A DNA stretch of 64,000 nucleotides, taken from assembly GCA_963727805.1 (NCBI GenBank), contig CAVSHF010000003.1, positions 1,088,001 to 1,152,000 on the forward strand, read 5' to 3'. How positions within the stretch are numbered: position 1 is the stretch's first letter; every line of letters starts with the position of its first letter. The notes under the pieces were generated by a model. That model worked only from the letters and a program-made list of their open reading frames with translations, was not told the origin of the DNA and searched no databases. The position numbers and the translations under genes are program-made. Source of the stretch: an uncultured Nitrospiraceae bacterium (GTDB taxonomy: Bacteria > Nitrospirota > Thermodesulfovibrionia > Thermodesulfovibrionales > Dissulfurispiraceae). Shown piece by piece: positions 9,491 to 20,260 of the stretch.

Positions 9491-10027
9491 ATGAAGAGAC
9501 TTACGTCGTTCACGATTATAATTCTCTTAGGTCTCGTACTCTGTCCTCTAACGGCCAGCGCAGGAGAGTACCAGAAAGGTGCGGTTACCCACTCCGGAGA
9601 CTTTGAAAAGATGAAAGGTTTAGTGGGCGTGTGGGAGGGGAAAGGAGACATGGGCAAGGGAATGGATAGCATCAAGGCAACCTATGAGCTTACTTCAGCC
9701 GGAAACGCCATTGTTGAGCGGCTCTTTGTTGGGCAACCCCATGAGATGGTCACTGTCTATCACGATTTTAAGGGAAAGTTGAGCATGACCCACTACTGCT
9801 CTCTAGGAAACCAGCCCCATATGGATCTCATGAATCCCGGCGAGAACACGATGATGTTCGTCCTGTCTAAGAAGAATCCCAACCTTTCGTCGGTGAAAGA
9901 GACTCATATGCATGCGCTTAAAATTTCGATGGGCAGCAAGGATAGCATCACCCAGACGTGGACGCTCTATGAAAAGGGAAAGAAGAAATCAGATACCGTG
10001 ATCAACTTGGTGCGCACAAAAGCCTGA
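9491..10027 (+). CDS. secreted hypothetical protein
   Basis: GGAGG RBS, signal peptide ending ASA, THYCSLGNQPHM motif. Confidence 0.7.
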   Translation: MKRLTSFTIIILLGLVLCPLTASAGEYQKGAVTHSGDFEKMKGLVGVWEGKGDMGKGMDSIKATYELTSAGNAIVERLFVGQPHEMVTVYHDFKGKLSMTHYCSLGNQPHMDLMNPGENTMMFVLSKKNPNLSSVKETHMHALKISMGSKDSITQTWTLYEKGKKKSDTVINLVRTKA

Positions 10028-10509
10028 GAGATTTTTGATATTTGTAAGTCAGCCAGGGGTTCTGTTGCAAGAAATCTGAGTGAAGAGGTTGCCGTCGCTT
10101 TATTGTGCTTCGACGTAAGTCGTGCCTCTGGAGAAACTCGTCGCCCAAGTTGCAATTCGTTCCAAAGGTCCGCAAGCAGCAAACTGCCGAAACTGCTAGC
10201 TTTTTTTACCGTTATCCTCAATAGTCAATAAATCCTGAAATAGCGGTGGAGTGGCTGTAACTGCCCTCGGCAGGTCTTTCCAAAGGCGTTTATTTCCGAA
10301 TGAACTGTTGCTAAAGTTTCGGTCTTCTGAAAGTGCGTAGTTGTCGGTGCACCAAACATCCAGAAGGAGCTGCCCGCCACTGATAGTTACGGGGCGAACA
10401 TCTCGCTTCTATCGATCCAGATCGCTGCGTGTTGCAAGAATTCACTCGCCGAAGCAGCGCCGATAGATTATTTCGAAGATAATCATCAGATTGCCGATAT
10501 TGGCGGCAC

Positions 10510-11937
10510 TGATGGTTTTCAGTCAACTATACAGCAGCCACCTCCTTTTTAAACGGCATTCTGTGTGTAAGCATAGAAAAGATCACTCTTATTAGCTTGT
10601 GAGAGGTCGCCATTAATGCTTTCATCGGAGGCAATCCCTCAGCCTTCCTTCTGAGATAATATTGTCTGAATATATTGTCAGACCTCACTGCACAAAGTGT
10701 CATTATATGGACGACGCGCCTCAGATGACGATTTCCTCGTTTTGATATTTTACTTGGCCCCACATGATTCCCTGACTGGTGTGTAGATGGATCAAGCCCC
10801 ATGAAAGCAATCAAACTCTTATATGATTTGAAGTTGGACAACTCTCCGATCTCCGCCAAAAAGCTGCATCCAGTTATGTTTTTTACTCCATCGAGAGTTT
10901 TAATGATCTCAAGATCTTCGATCCGCATTGCCTGACACGCTTCTACCAATGCCTCGGTAATCTTCTCGCACTTTTCCTGAAGATACAGGATCGTGGTTGC
11001 CTTCTCAGAGACAATAAGCTCCTTTGCTCTACCGGCTGAGCCCACCGAGCGCTTTGCCGCAGCAATAAGATCGTCGGCACTAATCTGCACTCTCTTGCGC
11101 TTCTCCCCGGGACAGATGAGAGCTTTGTCGATATCTCTCCTCTTTGCCTCGCGAACTAATCTGGCGGAGGGGTACTGTCTCAGAAAGTTCAGCATCGTCT
11201 CCGTGTAAATATTCTTGCGTAGTGTCTCAAACTCAGGGAAAGTGTTCTGCAGTAACCGTTTGAGGTCATTCTTCATTGATGCGATCATCCATGACTGAGA
11301 CTCCCGCTCCCTGGCCAGATCCCTCAAGTCCTGTGCATCCTGGGACGCAGTTACCGCGCAAAGCTTCTTTTCATTGCTCAGAAGAAACTGCGCTATGGTC
11401 ATAGCATCCTTCTTATCTGTCTTGGTCTTCCTCAATGATCCCTGAACAAATCTGGATATCAGAAGCGGATTGACTACCGCACAACGAAATCCCTCCGCGC
11501 ATAGAAAGGAAAAGAGGTTGATATGATAACAGCCGGTGGACTCCATTGCTACAGCAATATCATCCATGTTCTCAGTGCAGCCCTTAAGCGCAGCCCGAAG
11601 CTCTGTAAACCCTGCTGAGTCCATTGAGAACCTTAAGTAAAAAAGCTTCTTTTCGTTACTATCAATGCCCTGGGCAGTCGAGTACTCTTTTGCCGCATCG
11701 ATGCCTACAAATACCTTGCTCATCTCCAAGCACCTCCCGCATAGGATATTAGGCAGGAATGCCTCCCAACCATATCTCCATCTTTACAAGAGCTCATCGC
11801 CCGATCAACTTATCATGGTTTTGGGAGACAGGGGACTGACTGAAAAAAGGATTCTATGACCCTGTAGAAAGCACGTCCTCCTGCCTCTTTATGAACGGTT
11901 AACAACCGTCCATATTCTGGTTATACCATATTTGATG
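10510..11937 (-). mobile_element. IS110-family element (5' non-coding region type)
   Basis: TGATG at both ends (10510-10514, 11933-11937); transposase plus ~200 bp structured upstream NCR. Confidence 0.7.
10527..11729 (-). CDS. IS110 family transposase/recombinase
   Basis: DEDD (GIDAAK, MESTG, KTDKKDA), HQSG serine, SKRGNRHLR. Confidence 0.95.
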   Translation of the reverse strand: MEMSKVFVGIDAAKEYSTAQGIDSNEKKLFYLRFSMDSAGFTELRAALKGCTENMDDIAVAMESTGCYHINLFSFLCAEGFRCAVVNPLLISRFVQGSLRKTKTDKKDAMTIAQFLLSNEKKLCAVTASQDAQDLRDLARERESQSWMIASMKNDLKRLLQNTFPEFETLRKNIYTETMLNFLRQYPSARLVREAKRRDIDKALICPGEKRKRVQISADDLIAAAKRSVGSAGRAKELIVSEKATTILYLQEKCEKITEALVEACQAMRIEDLEIIKTLDGVKNITGCSFLAEIGELSNFKSYKSLIAFMGLDPSTHQSGNHVGPSKISKRGNRHLRRVVHIMTLCAVRSDNIFRQYYLRRKAEGLPPMKALMATSHKLIRVIFSMLTHRMPFKKEVAAV

Positions 11938-12413
11938 TGTAGGAGTAGAAACCTCGCCGTGGTGCGATTCTCGATGACACCTGAAAAGGTTCAGTTTGGC
12001 TGCGTTGTCGAGACTATCGATTCCCAAAAGGTAACTATCAGCATTTTAGCCAGTTTCTCACATTGCTTCCCTTAACCCTCGCATGCCTTTTATAAAACTT
12101 AGTGGCCTTTTTATAATGCCGCGATGCTAAAAAAAGCGACAGCTAAAAGCTGTTCGCGGGAAAGCTAGTTAGGCAATCCCAAGTATTGAATTAGCTCACA
12201 GAGCCCATTTCTTTTAGAAGCCGAACAAATTAGTAATTACCACTGTCCAGCGATAGGAATATCCGTAAGAATTCCATACGCAAAGCAGGCATCTTTGGTT
12301 AAGTCACCCGGCGCGCCACACCCATCTCACGTGTTTCTTGGCAATGTGAACGCCATCTTCTTCTATGTGGTCCTTGCATTGTAAGTTGATGCATTGGCGC
12401 TTTATACTAAGAC

Positions 12414-12848
12414 ATGGAACCTCATATAACAGATATTACACATGTCATTCAACTTGCAGTAGCGCCGGTCTTCCTTCTTACCGCTATTGCGACGCTTATT
12501 ACGGCCCTGAACAATCGGCTGGGTCGCATTGTCGATCGTAGACGCGTCCTGCAGGACCACTTGCGGAATCTTTCCGGCGCAGAGGCTGAGGGAATAGAGA
12601 CAGAGCTTCAGCGGCAAAGGCACCGAGGCAAGTTAATCTACTTCTCAATCTTCTCCGCTGTCTTGGGTGGATTATTGATATGCCTAGTAGTGGCGGGCGC
12701 ATTCCTTGGTGCGTTGTCGAGGGTCGACTTGTCGAAGGAGATAGCTGTTCTCTTCGTTCTTGCAATGTTTGCTCTGATCGTGTGCCTCGGGATATTTTTG
12801 CGAGAGGTTTATTTAGCAGTTTCGGGCGGAAGCAGCATCTATCGATAG
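12414..12848 (+). CDS. DUF2721-like membrane protein
   Basis: IQLAVAPVFLL...RLGRIVDR, three TM segments, FLREV. Confidence 0.8.
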   Translation: MEPHITDITHVIQLAVAPVFLLTAIATLITALNNRLGRIVDRRRVLQDHLRNLSGAEAEGIETELQRQRHRGKLIYFSIFSAVLGGLLICLVVAGAFLGALSRVDLSKEIAVLFVLAMFALIVCLGIFLREVYLAVSGGSSIYR

Positions 12849-13253
12849 AGTGAATGTTAATTTCTGAGTATTTTCTGAAAACGATGTCCGCTGATTGTTA
12901 TAGCAGAAAATCTGTAGCAGATTCCGCTTCCCGAAATTCCAGATTATTAGCGGAAACAAACAGCCGGAGAGAGTCGTCCGCCCCGTTTAGTCCTTGGTGA
13001 ACACTGTATTTCTCAGCGAGTCAGATCAAGGCGTGTCATAAGGAGGCAATCGACGTTGCGTCAATGATAGTTTTTTTTGGTAATCACGATATGCCTAGTA
13101 CTGGTAAAATCGATGACTTTCAGGTCACATCGAGAACCGACCACCGCGCTGTACTACTTATATATCCCTTTTTTTTGGGGGCTCGGTTGGAAAGTCTTCG
13201 ATGCCAAAGCCTGATATACTGAAGATATTCAAATGAATTAGATAACCGGGAGA

Positions 13254-13709
13254 ATGATAATGTTCGGCGAGATCCCCCTTAATTATGAACTGCAGCTTCT
13301 CATTCTCGTGATTGCCCTCGGCAAGGCTTATAACACCCTGGATGTTGCACACATTGAACGACTCCTTGACGACGATATCAAGTACGCAAGTCAGCAGGTT
13401 TTTTCTCCTCTTAAAGGCAAGGAGGCCGTGCTTGATTACCTGAGAAAAAAGTTCGATACGCTGAGAAACACCCCGGGATCAGAACTTTTTGCCGAGATAG
13501 GTTTTATGGGTAGCCAGGAGCGTGAATACATTAAGGCTGCTTTCGCGACAGAAGGTCAACCCTGCCTGATCCTATCGCAGGGCGGGAAGGAGAGAAAACT
13601 GGCGGTTGTGCTGGTCGAGGGACTAAAAGGTAAAATTAGCGATGTCCAACTATGCACGGTTGCACCGCATTGGTCCCAGGTGCAGGGCACCGGCGAATAT
13701 CCGGTGTAG
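13254..13709 (+). CDS. NTF2/SnoaL-like hypothetical protein
   Basis: AYNTLD..LLDDDIKYASQ..LKGKEAVLDY pattern. Confidence 0.5.
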   Translation: MIMFGEIPLNYELQLLILVIALGKAYNTLDVAHIERLLDDDIKYASQQVFSPLKGKEAVLDYLRKKFDTLRNTPGSELFAEIGFMGSQEREYIKAAFATEGQPCLILSQGGKERKLAVVLVEGLKGKISDVQLCTVAPHWSQVQGTGEYPV

Positions 13710-13834
13710 TCAGGTGTTATTCACAGGCTAAATTCCTCACAGACCCTGGTTTATTATTGTCAAGTACTTTACCTTCCCCTTCTATGGGAACTTATTGGAT
13801 ATCGCATTATATGTTCCTTATGCTTAATTGATGT

Positions 13835-13985
13835 AGCACCTTGCCCAACACTGGTGATTTGAGGGTCTCTACAGAGCCCTAACCTTGCTTCATTGAGACT
13901 AAGATGCAAGCGGGGAGTTATGCATGCTACGAATGAGGGTCGGCTCAGCCGCCTTTGGGTCTGTGATGATAATCTCCCCGCCCTA
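13835..13985 (-). ncRNA. bridge RNA/seekRNA (target- and donor-binding loops)
   Basis: two stem/internal-loop/hairpin modules whose loop sequences match the element's flanks and its own ends; boundaries approximate. Confidence 0.75.
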
Positions 13986-14001
13986 TGCGCCAAAGTATGA
14001 C

Positions 14002-15258
14002 TTATGCGGCCTCCTGTAACAATGTTATTGAGAAGTCTTTTCTGTACACGCTTTGATCACGCACGATGGCGAATATGATTCCAAGAAGTTTCCTTGCAAC
14101 GGCGATCAAAGCTTTGATCTTGGGCATTCCACGCTGGAGGTACTGTTGATATGGATGATGCATTATTCCTCCTCGGCGAACTGCATTGAGTGCGGCAAAG
14201 AACAAGAGTTTACGCAGAAGTGGGCGGCCTCGCTTGGATATGCGCCGTTTTCCCTGATGTTTACCCGAACTGATCTCATACAGGTCCAGGCCAGCGAGCT
14301 TCAGAATCTCTGAGAGGGTTCTAAACTTACGAAAATCACCAACCTCACCAATAAGACCGGCAGCTGTGACCTCCTTGATACCCTTGATCGACAGGATCGA
14401 ATCACTGTATGGGATCTGTTTCAGGTAATAGGCCATCTCTTTTTCCAGACTCTCGGTAAAGGACTCAGCTGCATCCATGATAACAAGAAGCTCTCGCATC
14501 TCACGGATAATGCTTGCCATGCCTTCAGTCACGCCCACAGATGTTTGGGCAGCCTCAAAGAGGGCCTTAGCACGGTCTTCCTTGAGTTTTCCACGGCTTA
14601 TCTTTCTGAGTGTGTTGGTCAAATTATCAAGACCATACTCGACAATATCCTTTGGTGCCGGACACTGCTTAAGTAGATATCGGGAGCTTAATATTTTCAT
14701 ATCCTTCATGACATGCAAGAATTCCGGGAAGACGATCGCAACCAGACTGTGGAGTTGATTCACTGAAGCCACAAAACGCTCATTGCTCCTCTCCCTGGCC
14801 TGTGTGAGCCTCCGAAGCTCTGCAGCCGGACCTTCCGGTATCACAACTGTCAGGGCGTGGCCGAGAGCCATGATATCGGCAATGACCTTCGGGTCTTTCT
14901 GATCGGTCTTATTCGGCGAATTGCCCTGCAAATCCTTCACCCTCTTAGTGTGCATAGGGTTAACCTGTACCATATGAACTCCTCTTGCGCGCATGAAATG
15001 CACCAAAGGCTCTGCGAACGAACCAGTAGATTCGTATCCAAACACAATGTTATCAAGATTATAGAGATTCTTGGCATGCAACACTTGGTTCCAGAACTCT
15101 TGAAAACCACCGCCGTTGTTCCAGAAAGCAAAAGGCTTCACATCGGTTCCGTCCGGACAGCGCCAGTACCCAAAATGTTTGTCTTTGCTCATATCAACAC
15201 TCACGATCAGGGTTTGTCCGTTGACTACTTTAATCTTTTTTGTTTTAATCTTATTCAT
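14002..15258 (-). CDS. IS110 family transposase/recombinase
   Basis: SVDMSK, YESTG, KTDQKD, ISSGK, ISKRGRPLLR. Confidence 0.95.
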   Translation of the reverse strand: MNKIKTKKIKVVNGQTLIVSVDMSKDKHFGYWRCPDGTDVKPFAFWNNGGGFQEFWNQVLHAKNLYNLDNIVFGYESTGSFAEPLVHFMRARGVHMVQVNPMHTKRVKDLQGNSPNKTDQKDPKVIADIMALGHALTVVIPEGPAAELRRLTQARERSNERFVASVNQLHSLVAIVFPEFLHVMKDMKILSSRYLLKQCPAPKDIVEYGLDNLTNTLRKISRGKLKEDRAKALFEAAQTSVGVTEGMASIIREMRELLVIMDAAESFTESLEKEMAYYLKQIPYSDSILSIKGIKEVTAAGLIGEVGDFRKFRTLSEILKLAGLDLYEISSGKHQGKRRISKRGRPLLRKLLFFAALNAVRRGGIMHHPYQQYLQRGMPKIKALIAVARKLLGIIFAIVRDQSVYRKDFSITLLQEAA

Positions 15259-15519
15259 GGCTATACTCCTTTCTTTGGTTCGGATTTAACCAACTCGCCA
15301 ATTGGCTCCAAATCAAGAAAGAGTATAGCCTTTTTAAATGGCCATCACTACCCTTCTTAAATATAGCAAGCTACGAACCCACGTCTTCAAATACATGACC
15401 AAGGTAATGCAGCGTCTTCATTAATGAAGGCTGTCTGCTCATAGCGCCCACAACCCGGCGTATCCGGGACTGCGGTTTAAAGAAACATGCAGCTAGCTGC
15501 GATTTTGTGGCAATCTACA

Positions 15520-15690
15520 GTACTGCGCCGGCAAAGACCGATAGCTTCAATGGTGCGGATCTGCCCGTCTCATAGCGTGGTCCTGGGTCACGTCTGCGAC
15601 ATTGGTGAGTCCGGCTATGCCAGACATCCCGTTTGAGAGATTGATCAGAGTGACGTACCCGTACCGGCGTAGCATTCTGGTGAGATAACG
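15520..15690 (+). ncRNA. putative bridge-RNA-containing 5' NCR of IS110
   Basis: GCGCCGG...CCGGCGT closing stem with internal CATAGC/GCTATG stem; TTGAGAGA in the NCR recurs at the element's right end (~17063). Confidence 0.45.
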
Positions 15691-15699
15691 GAGGGAACT

Positions 15700-17046
15700 G
15701 TGGGAAGAAGACATCGTGCTTTGACATTGAAGCATCCAAATGCTGCTGGTATCGATGTAGGTGCAGAAAGCCATTTTGTGGCAGTACCGCCAGATCGGGA
15801 CGATGAACCGGTACGGGAGTTCAGGAGTTTTACTGAAGATTTACACCGCATAGCGCAGTGGTTGTCTAACTGTGGAGTGGACATAGTGGCGATGGAGTCC
15901 ACGGGGGTCTACTGGATATCGTTGTATGAGTTCTTAGAGTCAAAAGGATTCACGGTATATCTGGTGAATGCGCGACATGTCAAAAATGTTTCTGGTCGCA
16001 AATCGGATGTATTGGATTGTCAATGGATACAGCAGTTGATGAGTTATGGGCTTTTGTCGGGTGCCTTTAGGCCTGCAGATGAGATATGCGCATTGAGAGC
16101 AGTGTCACGGCAAAGGGAGATGCTTCTTAAGTATCAATCTCAGCATGTACAGCACATGCAGAAGGCTCTTGCGCAGATGAATATTCAGATAGTCAATGTT
16201 ATTGCAGATATCGTAGGGGAGACTGGACAAAAGATAGTGAGAGCAATAATCGCTGGAGAGCGTGACCCCTATAAGCTTGCAAGCCTGAGGAACTACCGAG
16301 TAAAAGCGAGCGAGGAAGAGATAGCAAAATCATTGCAAGGCAACTGGCGTCAAGAGCATTTGTTTGCACTTAAACAGGCCGTTGCATTATTTGATGCATA
16401 CTCGGAGCAGCTTCGTCAGTGTGATTGCCAGCTCCAGAAGATGCTTCAGGAACTGAAGCGGTATGATGGAGAGCCTACATCTATATATAGTAAAGCGAGA
16501 TCTCGCAAAAAGAACGAGCCTCAGTTTGATTTGAGGTCATATCTGGTAGGGATGTGCGGAGTGGATTTGACCCGCATTGATGGAATAGAGGTAACGACTG
16601 CGTTGAAAATAATGTCGGAGGTGGGTCCGGATCTGTCGCGGTTTCCATCCGTAAAGCACTTCACTTCATGGCTGGGTATATGTCCTGGCACTAAGATATC
16701 TGGTGGAAAGAAATTATCCGGGAAATCCAGAGCTGGCGCTAACCGTGCAGCTCAGGCGTTAAGATTAGCCGCTCATGCATTACGTGCGAGCAAGTCGGCA
16801 TTGGGAGCCTACTATCGTCGTCTATGCTCCAGATTAGACAAAGCCAAAGCAATTACAGCTGCTGCACATAAATTGGCCCGACTAGTTTATACAATGCTTA
16901 CAAGGGGAACAGAATATGTGGACAAGGGGCAGGAATACTACGAAGAACGTTATCGACAGCGTGTTGTCCATAACTTGAACAAAAAGGCTGCGGCTATGGG
17001 TTTCGTTCTTATGCCGGCTCCGGAGAAGGCCTGTGGAATGCCATGA
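15700..17046 (+). CDS. IS110 family transposase/recombinase
   Basis: GIDVG, MESTGVYW, RKSDVLDC, KISGG, AHKLARLVY. Confidence 0.95.
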   Translation: MGRRHRALTLKHPNAAGIDVGAESHFVAVPPDRDDEPVREFRSFTEDLHRIAQWLSNCGVDIVAMESTGVYWISLYEFLESKGFTVYLVNARHVKNVSGRKSDVLDCQWIQQLMSYGLLSGAFRPADEICALRAVSRQREMLLKYQSQHVQHMQKALAQMNIQIVNVIADIVGETGQKIVRAIIAGERDPYKLASLRNYRVKASEEEIAKSLQGNWRQEHLFALKQAVALFDAYSEQLRQCDCQLQKMLQELKRYDGEPTSIYSKARSRKKNEPQFDLRSYLVGMCGVDLTRIDGIEVTTALKIMSEVGPDLSRFPSVKHFTSWLGICPGTKISGGKKLSGKSRAGANRAAQALRLAAHALRASKSALGAYYRRLCSRLDKAKAITAAAHKLARLVYTMLTRGTEYVDKGQEYYEERYRQRVVHNLNKKAAAMGFVLMPAPEKACGMP

Positions 17047-17463
17047 GATTTAAAGCTGTTTCTTGAGAGAAGATTGGGTTTGAGGATGGCACCTGTTATA
17101 ACGACATTACAGCATACTACGCGGGGGTAGACACGGGATTAGAAAAGTCTTGCTTTTTTAACATAGAAGTAATTATTTGGGATGGGAATCCTGTGTGCTC
17201 TGAAGGTAATAAGCGGAAATCATCGCGGCTGTTTCGGCACCACAGTGGAGTGGCTAACTAGCGCTACCATTTTTATCGATGGCATTGTACTACTCAAAGC
17301 AGAAGACATCCGCACTCAATAAGGGTATTTGTTCAGCATATCTCTGACTTAACTTAATAGATCTCTAGTTAGTATCGGTTTGAAGGCGAAATCCATATTT
17401 CCCCCGACAAAGCTTTCCTGATTTATTTTGTCGGCAGTGTAGCTCTACAGAGATGAGGATAAA

Positions 17464-17604
17464 ATGCCGGATATGAGCTATAATGGAAGCAATTGCATGT
17501 ATTGTCATACTCCGAATACGTGGACAGTGGAAGAAAGTGCCCTAAGTCTCTGCAGTCAGTGTCATGAGTACCGGGGCCCTCGGACTTTCGTTCATATATT
17601 CTGA
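17464..17604 (+). CDS. 46-aa ORF with two CxxCH heme motifs (mini cytochrome or remnant)
   Basis: MPDMSYNGSNCMYCHTPNTWTVEESALSLCSQCHEYRGPRTFVHIF; GAGG 5 nt upstream; below ORF-track cutoff. Confidence 0.55.
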   Translation: MPDMSYNGSNCMYCHTPNTWTVEESALSLCSQCHEYRGPRTFVHIF

Positions 17605-17611
17605 TGAATCT

Positions 17612-18625
17612 ATGAACCTCCCTCAGGACATAGCTTTTCTCATTTCCTCTTATTGGGGAATGTATGTTGTCCAAACCGTTATTCATTCCGCCATAGCCTC
17701 GATGCTCGTTGAGTGTGCGTTTCTCGCATGGACTATTCGGACGCCGCATGTGAAACAGTGGTTTCGTTTCATAGTTATTTTTTTGCCAATTGTCTCGTTT
17801 CCTCTTTACCAGCTTATGTTCCCTCGCAGAGGTGATGTATATTTCAGGATGGAAAGTTTGCTCGACAGTAATAGATGGTTTTTCATCGGGCAGTGGGGCA
17901 GCATCTCAGTGCTTGCTGTGTTCGCTTTTATGCTGGCGATTACCTCTGTTATATTCATCATTCAGGAGCTCGTGCCTATCTTCTCCCACATTCTGGAGCA
18001 AAGACATGCAGCCAACCAATCGGAGCCTGATGAGGTAGAGACAACCATGTCGCGGAAAGTGACGGAAGCACTTAAGGGGCTACCACTTGATGAGAGGTTC
18101 GTCCAGGTCATCGATGATGAAGACCTCGCGCTCTTCTCGTCTACCGGTCTGAAGCCGATGATTCATATCTCGACTGGGTTGATCGAAGCCTTTACCACTG
18201 AACATCTGCATGTGGCCTTAGCCCATGAAATCGCCCATATTCAGAGAAGCAAAAAACCCGTCCTTATTTTTGCCTATATCCTCAGGGTAATTGTTTTCTT
18301 CAACCCCATTGCTATGATTGAGTTCAGAAGGCTCGCTCACGAGGAGGAAAAAGTATGCGACGACATCGCAATTGCACTGACTGGCCAGCCCGAGAAACTC
18401 TCCGAAGCGATTGAAATGCTGCGGCCGACGCCCGAGGATTATGACGTCGACACGAGTCGGGGGGCAGAGCGTCTTGTGTCGACGCTTGAGCATTACAGTC
18501 ACGACGTCCTGCTGAAAAGTAGGGCATTAAGGATAAGAAATAGCAGCCAAGAAGTTCCCCTCTGGGGGGTTCCGTTTATAGTGACAGTAGCTCTTATTGT
18601 GAGCATCAACTATTTTATTGTATAA
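17612..18625 (+). CDS. M56/BlaR1-like membrane metallopeptidase
   Basis: HEIAH zinc motif, FFNP, EEKVCDDIA; TM helices; no beta-lactam sensor domain; start moved to ATG 17612. Confidence 0.85.
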   Translation: MNLPQDIAFLISSYWGMYVVQTVIHSAIASMLVECAFLAWTIRTPHVKQWFRFIVIFLPIVSFPLYQLMFPRRGDVYFRMESLLDSNRWFFIGQWGSISVLAVFAFMLAITSVIFIIQELVPIFSHILEQRHAANQSEPDEVETTMSRKVTEALKGLPLDERFVQVIDDEDLALFSSTGLKPMIHISTGLIEAFTTEHLHVALAHEIAHIQRSKKPVLIFAYILRVIVFFNPIAMIEFRRLAHEEEKVCDDIAIALTGQPEKLSEAIEMLRPTPEDYDVDTSRGAERLVSTLEHYSHDVLLKSRALRIRNSSQEVPLWGVPFIVTVALIVSINYFIV

Positions 18626-18626
18626 A

Positions 18627-19178
18627 ATGGAAAATCAGGAAAACAAAATAGTAAAAATAATGCGAGGTCTGCTTTGGATGATCCTCGCTACCGCGGGAGT
18701 AGTAGGGCTTCTGGTTACAGCAAACCGACTGCCTTTTTTTATGCAGGAGGATTTCCCGAGACAGTTCGCTAGCCTTGATGAGGCGAAACACGTTATCGGG
18801 CTCGATAACGCCCTCATCCCTGCTTATTTCCCGGAAAGAATCTCCTGGCCCCCATCTTTTATCTTTGGGCAGAAGAGACCTGACAAGGTTCTTGTGATGG
18901 AATTTAAGGATACACTATCAGGAACCCCCACGTTGATTATAATCCAATCTTCAACGACGCGTAGCCTCACTCAGTACCAGAGGATAAGGCTCGCCGTAGT
19001 GAAACAGGAGACGGAATACGGGCTCAAAGGCAAGAAAGCTCTCCTTCAGATCGGTACATGCGATAATACATTGCCCTGCAGCCAGATCACCTGGCAGGAT
19101 GGGGGAGAGCGCTGCACAGTACTTCTCATGTCTTCCCCCTTTGAAGTCATAAAAATAGCCGAAAGCATGATCCACTGA
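18627..19178 (+). CDS. membrane-anchored hypothetical protein
   Basis: N-terminal TM helix, LIPAYFPERISWPP; starts 1 nt after the peptidase stop. Confidence 0.7.
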   Translation: MENQENKIVKIMRGLLWMILATAGVVGLLVTANRLPFFMQEDFPRQFASLDEAKHVIGLDNALIPAYFPERISWPPSFIFGQKRPDKVLVMEFKDTLSGTPTLIIIQSSTTRSLTQYQRIRLAVVKQETEYGLKGKKALLQIGTCDNTLPCSQITWQDGGERCTVLLMSSPFEVIKIAESMIH

Positions 19179-19236
19179 GTATCTGTCTGTCTTTTTATTC
19201 GGCTGCACCTCGCTACTTTCTCCTCTGCGACTAAGA

Positions 19237-19298
19237 ACTATTTCCTATCAATATGGGAAGTAGTGCCAATTATAATCCTTTATTGGAAATGGTACGCT
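19237..19298 (+). promoter_or_regulatory. putative operator and extended -10 of the cytochrome operon
   Basis: ACTATTTCCTAT-caat-ATGGGAAGTAGT imperfect inverted repeat (10/12); TGGTACGCT at 19290-19298. Confidence 0.4.
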
Positions 19299-19426
19299 TG
19301 AATTAAGAAAAGGGAACAGGTGGGTGGAACAATGCTTATGAACGGTTATTTGAAGAGGCTAAAGCCCTCAGGAATGGATCAGGGGCGAGTGAATATAAAC
19401 TGCATAAGATAATGAGGAGGTGTAAG

Positions 19427-19819
19427 ATGTTTCTCTACAAAGGTGGACATTCGGTTAAAAAGGGTACGTATTGGGAATCCGAGAAAAATGAGAAAATAGT
19501 ACTGAAAGAAAGTGGTTTTCTGCCCGGAGGCGATAAGGATCTATATTTCAGGCTTCCGGAAAGCTATTTCTTAATCCCTCTGTTTCTGTTAGGCCTGGCA
19601 CTGTCGATGGCTTTTCCCTACGGCGTAGGATTTGTGGCGTTTCTCGGTCTAATAGCTCTGACCGGCGCAATCTATGCCGCAGGGTTCGCAAGTATTAAAC
19701 TCTTTAAGGAAATGTTAGGTAAAACAGCGACTTTTGGGTATGTGCCTACCACTGCATATATGACCGGTAAAAAGACAAAGAAGATCAAGAAAGACGAATC
19801 ATCGGAAGAAGAAAAATAG
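19427..19819 (+). CDS. small membrane protein, paralog 1
   Basis: YKGG..VKKGTYW..LPG..YFRLPESY, hydrophobic segment, FGYVPTTAYMTG + Lys-rich tail; GAGGAGG RBS. Confidence 0.8.
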   Translation: MFLYKGGHSVKKGTYWESEKNEKIVLKESGFLPGGDKDLYFRLPESYFLIPLFLLGLALSMAFPYGVGFVAFLGLIALTGAIYAAGFASIKLFKEMLGKTATFGYVPTTAYMTGKKTKKIKKDESSEEEK

Positions 19820-19858
19820 AGTCTTTAAGGGATTCGGGCATAAGCGAGGAGGTATAAA

Positions 19859-20260
19859 ATGTTTCTATTCAAAGGTGGGCAAGCGGTAAAGAAAGGCACT
19901 TATTGGGGTGCCGGGACGACAGGTAAGATAGTCCTGAAGGATAACGAATATCTGCCCGGTGCCGAGCGGGAAGTGTATTTCAAACTTCCGGAAAGTTACA
20001 TCCTGATTCTGCCAATGCTGCTTGCCCTCGGGCTTCCCATGGTCATCCCCGTTCGTACAGAGTTCATGATGATTGCGCTTGTCGTCGCCACTATTTTGGC
20101 GTTCTATGTGGCAGGAATGGGCTTTTCCGTGCTCATCAAGAAAATGCTTGGCAAGACCGCGACATTCGGGTATGCGCCGACTACCTCATACCTGGCGGGG
20201 AACAAGATGAAAAAGACGAGGAAGGAAAGCTTGTCTGAAGAGGAAAACAGGAGAGGGTAG
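19859..20260 (+). CDS. small membrane protein, paralog 2
   Basis: FKGG..VKKGTYW..LPG..YFKLPESY, TM, FGYAPTTSYLAG. Confidence 0.8.
   Translation: MFLFKGGQAVKKGTYWGAGTTGKIVLKDNEYLPGAEREVYFKLPESYILILPMLLALGLPMVIPVRTEFMMIALVVATILAFYVAGMGFSVLIKKMLGKTATFGYAPTTSYLAGNKMKKTRKESLSEEENRRG

Follow-up and report, generated by a model that had tools for sequence, protein, structure and literature searches.

An IS110-family element with a predicted 3′ bridge RNA at the bridge-RNA gene of a second IS110 element

A stretch of 64,000 nt from an uncultured Nitrospiraceae bacterium (the window) contains an IS110-type element that, according to a sequence-only reading, encodes a bridge RNA with guides matching its own insertion site. 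This locus raises the questions of whether the recombinase of this element (element B) is guided by such an RNA, which target it would recognize, and how the present arrangement arose. Element B extends from core to core over positions 13746-15372 on the minus strand, is present in three copies in the genome, and has the same ends in its relatives. The recombinase gene (14002-15258, minus strand) encodes 418 aa, contains the Pfam domains PF01548 and PF02371, and matches NCBIfam NF033542 with 196.9 bits, at a cut-off of 140. The residues D22, E76, D119, D122, and S331-G332 align with the DEDD residues and S241 of IS621 (alignment to 8wt6) and are invariant in A1, in agreement with the earlier description of B as intact. 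The core reads CT on the plus strand and AG in the sense of the gene (13746-13747 and 15371-15372). The left end has about 112 bp and the right end, which carries the RNA region, about 254 bp. Both ends have the 2-bp core without further target duplication, as seen from filled and uninterrupted sites on the contigs C4 and C5 and from both junctions of the metagenome locus L012 (see below). The subterminal inverted repeat comprises 4 bp (AATA at 15360-15363 pairs with TATT at 13752-13755), and no exact inverted repeat of greater length lies within 50 bp of the ends.

The CT core common to both ends and the minus-strand reading TTGACA-17-TATATT across the joined ends were confirmed in the sequence. 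A circle-junction promoter is predicted there, with the −35 box TTGACA at 13758-13763 and the −10 box TATATT at 15360-15365 (both on the minus strand), and the boxes at the joined ends are the same in relatives. They were found at 65 of 65 loci with both ends, a value that is partly given by construction because the end patterns included the boxes. A linear scan for promoters and terminators yielded 2 and 2 sites, i.e. the chance level, which gives no grounds for an internal promoter of the RNA. By inference from IS621, ISEc11, and CazIS110-1, B would form a circle by joining its ends at the core. The junction promoter would then drive one transcript from the gene into the RNA, with processing, and a tetramer of the RNA-bound recombinase would exchange strands at the CT core. 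The circle, the junction promoter, the co-transcription, and the tetramer model are described in parts of PMC11208160, PMC11208158, PMC13626964, and PMC11187229.

The bridge RNA is predicted at 13829-13998 (minus strand, ends approximate), with the target module preceding the donor module, based on an alignment of 62 sequences, pair counts, and a model match. All four guides are on the minus strand. The left target guide (13958-13966) consists of the 7 nt UCACAGA (13960-13966) and the core-opposite CC, and the right target guide (13925-13933) of UUCGU, the AG core, and the handshake bases CA. The left donor guide (13882-13890) comprises AAGCAAG (13884-13890) and the core-opposite GU, and the right donor guide (13849-13859) AA, a UC bulge, ACC, AG, and the handshake bases UG, with the spacing of the IS621 template rr..rrrcchh. 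The guides of B thus map one-to-one on the IS621 designer template, which was taken from the code in supplement 7 of PMC11208160, including the two-base bulge of the right donor guide.

The previously described matches to the insertion site are exact: 13957-13966 is the reverse complement of 13737-13746, 13927-13933 is identical to 15371-15377, 13851-13855 is identical to 13746-13750, and 13884-13889 is the reverse complement of 15365-15370. The CGGGGAG/CTCCCCG stem was likewise found, at 13911-13917/13974-13980. The 10-mer of the target loop occurs at only two places in the window, the flank and the loop (0.06 expected by chance). The donor matches of 5 and 6 nt are weak if taken alone, and they are supported by the relatives. 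Folding of the single sequence, a check proposed in the sequence-only reading, gave a modest result, with a z value of −2.12 and 7 of 200 shuffles as good. Rfam yielded no match within 10000-20000.

Relatives of B were gathered from five genome loci (four titled Nitrospirota and one Proteobacteria), the best 80 of 93 metagenome loci, and 13 loci from 12 of 400 genomes of the phylum (E 1e-90). At E 1e-80, B was found in none of 60 near relatives. The alignment of 62 distinct RNA regions has a consensus of two modules of the same build, in which a closing stem encloses two loop strands separated by a hairpin. In this structure, which was derived from the same alignment on which the pairs were counted, 98.4% of the cells are paired, and two-sided changes occur in 19 of 35 pairs, which was reached by none of 500 shuffles. 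Control structures that were slid along the alignment pair at 32-48%. The variable columns are the strands of the target loop. In many cases, the bases opposite the core in the first guides do not pair. The right ends of the relatives have 199-454 bp, compared to 86-125 bp for the left ends. A segment of about 150 bp that begins with GGGGG(G)TATCAGGATATGG is found downstream of the RNA at L001 and L004 (relatives of B) as well as at L110, L113, L114, and L122 (relatives of element D, see below). It lengthens the right ends of these two unrelated IS110 lineages and is possibly a small mobile insert.

The variable guides were compared with the flanks. For the 3′ target guide and the flank of the left end, 4.11 of 6 positions are identical on average (38 unique guides, 66 loci), and shuffles gave 1.71 ± 0.19, with a maximum of 2.5 in 20,000. 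For the 5′ target guide and the flank of the right end, the value is 4.80 of 7 in one fixed register (45 unique guides, 66 loci), compared to 2.40 ± 0.19 and a maximum of 3.13 in 5,000 shuffles. Both tests exclude five duplicate loci and four loci with an end pattern inside the RNA; the 3′ test also excludes L079, where the left end is uncertain, and L061, which has a short loop. The shuffle tests overstate the significance because the relatives are kin; the match between guide and flank is also visible locus by locus. The donor is nearly fixed, and in six of six distant loci with changed donor ends (L081, L082, L084, L085, L098, and L100) the change is mirrored in the donor loop.

A rule given in parts of PMC11208158 states that the handshake base pairs with target position 7. 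In the relatives, the first donor-loop handshake base, which follows the core in the right donor guide, complements target position 7 in 42 of 47 unique cases, with 21.7 after shuffling and a maximum of 32. This test left out two composite copies of this genome and four loci without a pattern match. At the second handshake position, no such relation is seen (12 of 47 cases, 12.3 after shuffling). The handshake base of the target loop is C in 42 of 51 cases and matches the donor G. Several observations concern the loci themselves. The closest relatives among the matches listed (L009-L011 and L053, 74-83%) fit a +1 register, so the spacing between guide and hairpin varies within the clade. The flanks of L003, L022-L031, L036-L045, and L048-L063 are palindromic and REP-like, of at least two types, and the guides match each type. 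In the flanks of L097 and L011, other IS110 genes adjoin the relatives of B.

The covariation of guides and structure in the relatives supports both the bridge-RNA reading and the loop assignments made earlier, and the donor AACC-AG-CTTGCT is borne out by the donor-loop changes in the distant loci. As judged from the sequence, B is very probably an intact IS110-family bridge-recombinase element with the RNA 3′ of the gene. We are equally confident in the predicted 14-bp target TCACAGA-CT-ACGAA and 14-bp donor TAGCAAG-CT-GGTTT, arranged as in IS621.

Where does this target occur? The flanks of B had been taken for ordinary chromosome, and both turned out to belong to another element, D. It is an intact IS110 element with a 356-aa protein, a predicted 3′ bridge RNA, and an AG core (G000:C5:1-1447; C4:1627-2900), and its subterminal inverted repeat is imperfect and 11-12 bp long. 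The guides of D flank a hairpin and match the D flanks CTCAC-AG and AG-TAAT; the same correspondence, judged by eye, exists in relatives of D. The site of B lies in the target loop of the D bridge-RNA gene and overlaps the 3′ target guide of D and the conserved bases after it; therefore, the insertion of B splits the guide RNA of D. On contig G000:C4, the right end of B is joined at TCACAGA|CT behind the D gene, in the right end of D, and the left-end flank of this copy lies beyond the contig end. The uninterrupted site is found at G000:C5:1263-1276. A check of the flanks of the other copies, proposed earlier, revealed that all three copies of B in the genome touch D.

The canonical target is TCACAGA-CT-ACGAA (TTCGT-AG-TCTGTGA on the minus strand), two bases shorter than the earlier 16-bp reading, because the register of the family and the handshake base point there. 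Of 66 loci, 42 are fitted best by register 0 alone and three by register +2 alone, the register required by the window flank; two of these three are the composite copies of this genome. The handshake U of B predicts an A at target position 7, as in TCACAGA|CT. The 14-mer occurs once in the 3.9-Mb genome, at the uninterrupted site within D, and one further site has a single mismatch. The previously predicted target TTCGT-AG-GGTCTGTGA did not hold up: the genome contains no empty copy (0 sites at 0-1 mismatches), and the sequence is a hybrid of two parts of D.

Four of the 23 listed sequencing runs were compared, all of them as contigs. The circle joint is listed in none of the four, and contigs cannot show its absence. 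The X1 contigs contain all three right-end junctions; this run may be the source sample and was left out of the count. In X2, from another study, a B contig continues for 28 letters past the left junction into D sequence, short of the 31 letters required, and the consensus of two loose ends at 13746 ends in CACAGA; both are only hints. Among the contigs of RNA run X18, which represent a small share, one of 192 nt covers 13877-14067, and another lies in the gene at similar depth. The contigs of RNA run X17, also a small share, include none over the RNA, and neither of the two runs demonstrates expression.

The window copy itself is part of a chimera. It begins with the left junction of D (13736-13745, plus strand), which consists of the D target half CTCAC, the core AG (13741-13742), and a 3-bp stub ACC, and matches the left junctions of D copies and D relatives. 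After B, the remaining 3′ bridge-RNA region of D (15373-15444, plus strand) extends from the closing stem of the target loop to the donor guide, and 74 bp are identical to the intact D at G000:C5:1270-1343. A third IS110, element C (15443-17069, plus strand; a 448-aa ORF at 15700-17046), is inserted in the donor guide of D at CTCAT-AG-AAGAT. It is followed by the last part of the D right end with the D core AG (17168-17169) and the target half TAAT (17070-17173, plus strand). The order is thus the D left junction, B, and the rest of the D right end with C inside, and the D recombinase gene is missing. The same junctions recur, between other outer flanks, in a second composite at G000:C5:438086-441526. 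Both composites lie between CTCAC-AG and AG-TAAT, i.e. in the target spelled by the guides of D itself. The C5 composite has 39 differences to the window in 13746-14977, none in 14978-17063, and 7 beyond, and the window B has no difference to the C4 copy behind the D gene.

In the window, the right end of B is joined at a CT that is two bases out of register in the D left junction, and the left end of B is still located in the right end of D. The crossover is at CT and not at the 9-bp microhomology repeat, and therefore the recombinase of B most likely made the junction, in a slipped register. A microhomology deletion as the origin of the chimera was rejected, as it would leave no CC. Movement of the D-ended composite as a unit is disfavoured because the left inverted repeat of D is lost and the two copies are mosaic. 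Mosaics could also stem from the assembly, in which strains may be mixed. An empty chromosomal allele for the D shell was found in none of 7 genomes of the same genus.

Two routes to the chimera deserve serious weight. The first, to which we assign a probability close to even, would involve two ordinary insertions of B, at the D left junction and in the D right end. The D gene would then be lost when the 1.6-kb repeats undergo homologous recombination or gene conversion with each other. The pattern of differences in the C5 composite is as expected from a crossover between two B variants, and TCACAGACC-CT-ATGA at the D left junction could plausibly serve as a near-cognate site. However, neither the genome nor the contig runs examined contain a B copy with ATGAT on the left-end flank, and an insertion in the disfavoured +2 register is still needed. 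The second route, which we place somewhat below an even chance, is a one-ended direct transfer in which the LT-RD junction of B in the D right end moved to the D left junction (nLT-RD). In the accompanying step, assigned the same weight, the LD-RT junction would have stayed and the D gene would have been deleted, by analogy to CazIS110-1 in vitro. The slipped junction may record such a transfer: the crossover falls precisely on a CT core, the window B is identical to the copy still behind the D gene, and the CazIS110-1 preprint gives LT-RD to nLT as the faster first step. Yet such a transfer is described in a single preprint, for another clade, and the mosaic C5 composite suggests that homologous recombination took part.

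An unlikely alternative keeps the earlier reading of the target: the natural target would be the 16-bp TCACAGACC-CT-ACGAA, and B would have inserted once into a short D derivative already devoid of the D gene. The guides indeed match the window flanks over 10 and 7 bases, two copies have these flanks, and the relative L061 also fits the +2 register best. But an empty site of this form is absent from the genome, the register counts given above favor register 0, and the handshake U does not pair with the C at position 7. In addition, a microhomology deletion between the CTCACAGAC repeats would leave no extra CC.

Is D a chance victim of B or its regular target? At L012, from a metagenome, both junctions of a relative of B (77% aa identity) fall on the same base within a D orthologue that is 82% identical to D at the aa level. 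The 5′ guide of this relative reads ACAUAGA where the guide of the D orthologue reads ACATAG, i.e. the two have changed together. Among the screened listed loci, D was found in the flanks only at L012 and at the copies of this genome, and a B-like gene was present within about 1.5 kb at none of 25 D loci from other genomes; therefore, targeting of D is a trait of a small sub-lineage. Tentatively, and with slightly less weight than either route to the chimera, we propose that B is a dedicated parasite of D. Its guide would copy and track the variable guide of D, its insertion would disable the D RNA, a two-base slip in a C-run would allow it to read the D left junction, and the window would represent a natural one-ended transfer with loss of the D recombinase gene. 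If so, B would follow D as D is reprogrammed, and, with C at the donor guide, two unrelated IS110 elements would attack both loops of one bridge-RNA gene.

The opposite reading, that B hits D by accident and that its guide is tuned to another repeat resembled by D, is improbable to a slightly greater degree than the 16-bp target. It is consistent with the unrelated, often palindromic-looking flanks that the guides of most relatives fit and with the additional single-mismatch site in the genome, but all three copies touch D, the only perfect site lies in D, and the guide at L012 changed in step with that of its D partner. It is hardly credible that the matches arose by chance or are relics and that the recombinase works without a guiding RNA. 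This reading is favored by the single-sequence z of only −2.1 and the lack of RNA detected in the run contigs, and it is opposed by covariation signals of four separate kinds and by compensatory changes in the stems.

Additional traces of IS110 elements were observed nearby. In a broken left end of D at about 277250 of G000:C5, the CT at which B is joined in the composites is followed by two additional bases, perhaps a scar of B and perhaps the outcome of simple drift, and several broken D ends exist elsewhere in the genome, one at about 8704 of the window. The long end of C lies 5′ of the gene; in it, CTCATAG (15569) and TTGAGAG (15633) repeat the target-left and donor-left sequences of C together with the AG core. 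An X17 contig contains a D variant with a relative of C and without B. A fourth IS110 family (400 aa; window 10527-11729) has eight copies at 86-100% identity, a long 5′ non-coding end, and a short right end; one copy adjoins the C5 composite, and the IS110 gene next to L097 is 49% identical to this family.

The mechanism of B and the targeting of other mobile elements by IS110 elements are known. New are the uncharacterised clade, the targeting of one IS110 by another, and the 2-nt slipped chimeric junction. The B clade comprises at least about 80 natural bridge recombinases, with a donor that hardly varies and dozens of targets that were reprogrammed in nature. It is a data set for rules on guides, registers, and handshakes beyond the IS621 clade and for elements with a 3′ RNA and without long terminal repeats. 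IS110 elements that land in each other's guide-RNA genes raise questions about competition among RNA-guided elements, and the slipped junction bears on register slippage and one-ended transfer, which are relevant to off-target deletions in bridge editing.

Insertion into other mobile elements has precedents: IS4321 and IS5075 reportedly target Tn21 repeats, and IS1383 is said to target the inverted repeats of IS1384. Parts of PMC11187229 describe ISEc21 with a programmed site inside another mobile element, in the codons of an IS3-family transposase. B differs from all of these in that its host is itself an IS110 and its site lies in a bridge-RNA gene and overlaps the host's own variable guide. 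A literature search, with most subscription journals outside its scope, found neither an IS110 aimed at the bridge-RNA gene of another IS110 nor the B clade.

In several respects, B resembles the IS1111 seekRNA elements ISEc11, ISKpn4, ISPa11, and ISPst6, which, according to parts of PMC11187229, have the non-coding region downstream of tnp, the top-strand match 5′ of the bottom-strand match, and an RNA co-transcribed from a junction promoter upstream of tnp. In contrast, the IS1111 group has subterminal inverted repeats of 7-17 bp, compared to 4 bp at best in B, and transposases of 330-350 aa, so that B with 418 aa is set apart by size; its donor loop is a simple internal loop, unlike that of IS1111 elements. 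B fits the exceptions in section 6 of PMC11187229, i.e. IS110-type elements without sTIR and with a 3′ NCR. The IS650/IS653/ISChy2/ISCsa4 cluster (row 236 of Supplementary Table 1 of PMC11208160) has the motif KDPKVIA in common with B and a RuvC domain that looks similar by eye, which makes this cluster no more than a lead; three motifs of B are absent from the examined parts of the PMC11208160 supplements. The best plasmid matches are IS110 proteins of Bacillota (31-35%), and the RNA model of B has no match in three such plasmid loci. For CazIS110-1, parts of Sun et al. (bioRxiv 10.1101/2025.10.25.684509) report a one-ended transfer from LT-RD to nLT that would give the junction pattern of the window; it was shown in vitro and in E. 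coli, for an element other than B.

The closest functional parallel is offered by IS621 and ISCro4 (IS622), described in parts of PMC11208160, PMC11208158, and bioRxiv 10.1101/2025.05.14.653916, which also have a DEDD and serine recombinase and a target loop followed by a donor loop. They also share with B the 7+2+5 target and donor, the CT core relative to the RNA, the bulged right donor guide, the handshake pairing at position 7, the junction promoter, and only a short subterminal repeat. The proteins are weakly similar (E 5.8e-7) and differ in length, with 418 aa for B and 328 aa for IS621. The IS110 group sensu stricto, of the IS621 type, has the bridge RNA in the left end and the bottom-strand match first, whereas B has it in the right end and in reversed order. 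The RNA of B is thus 3′ of the gene and that of IS621 5′, and, relative to the gene, the core of B reads AG and the donor halves are swapped. Lastly, the target of B is the RNA gene of another IS110, while that of IS621 is a REP.
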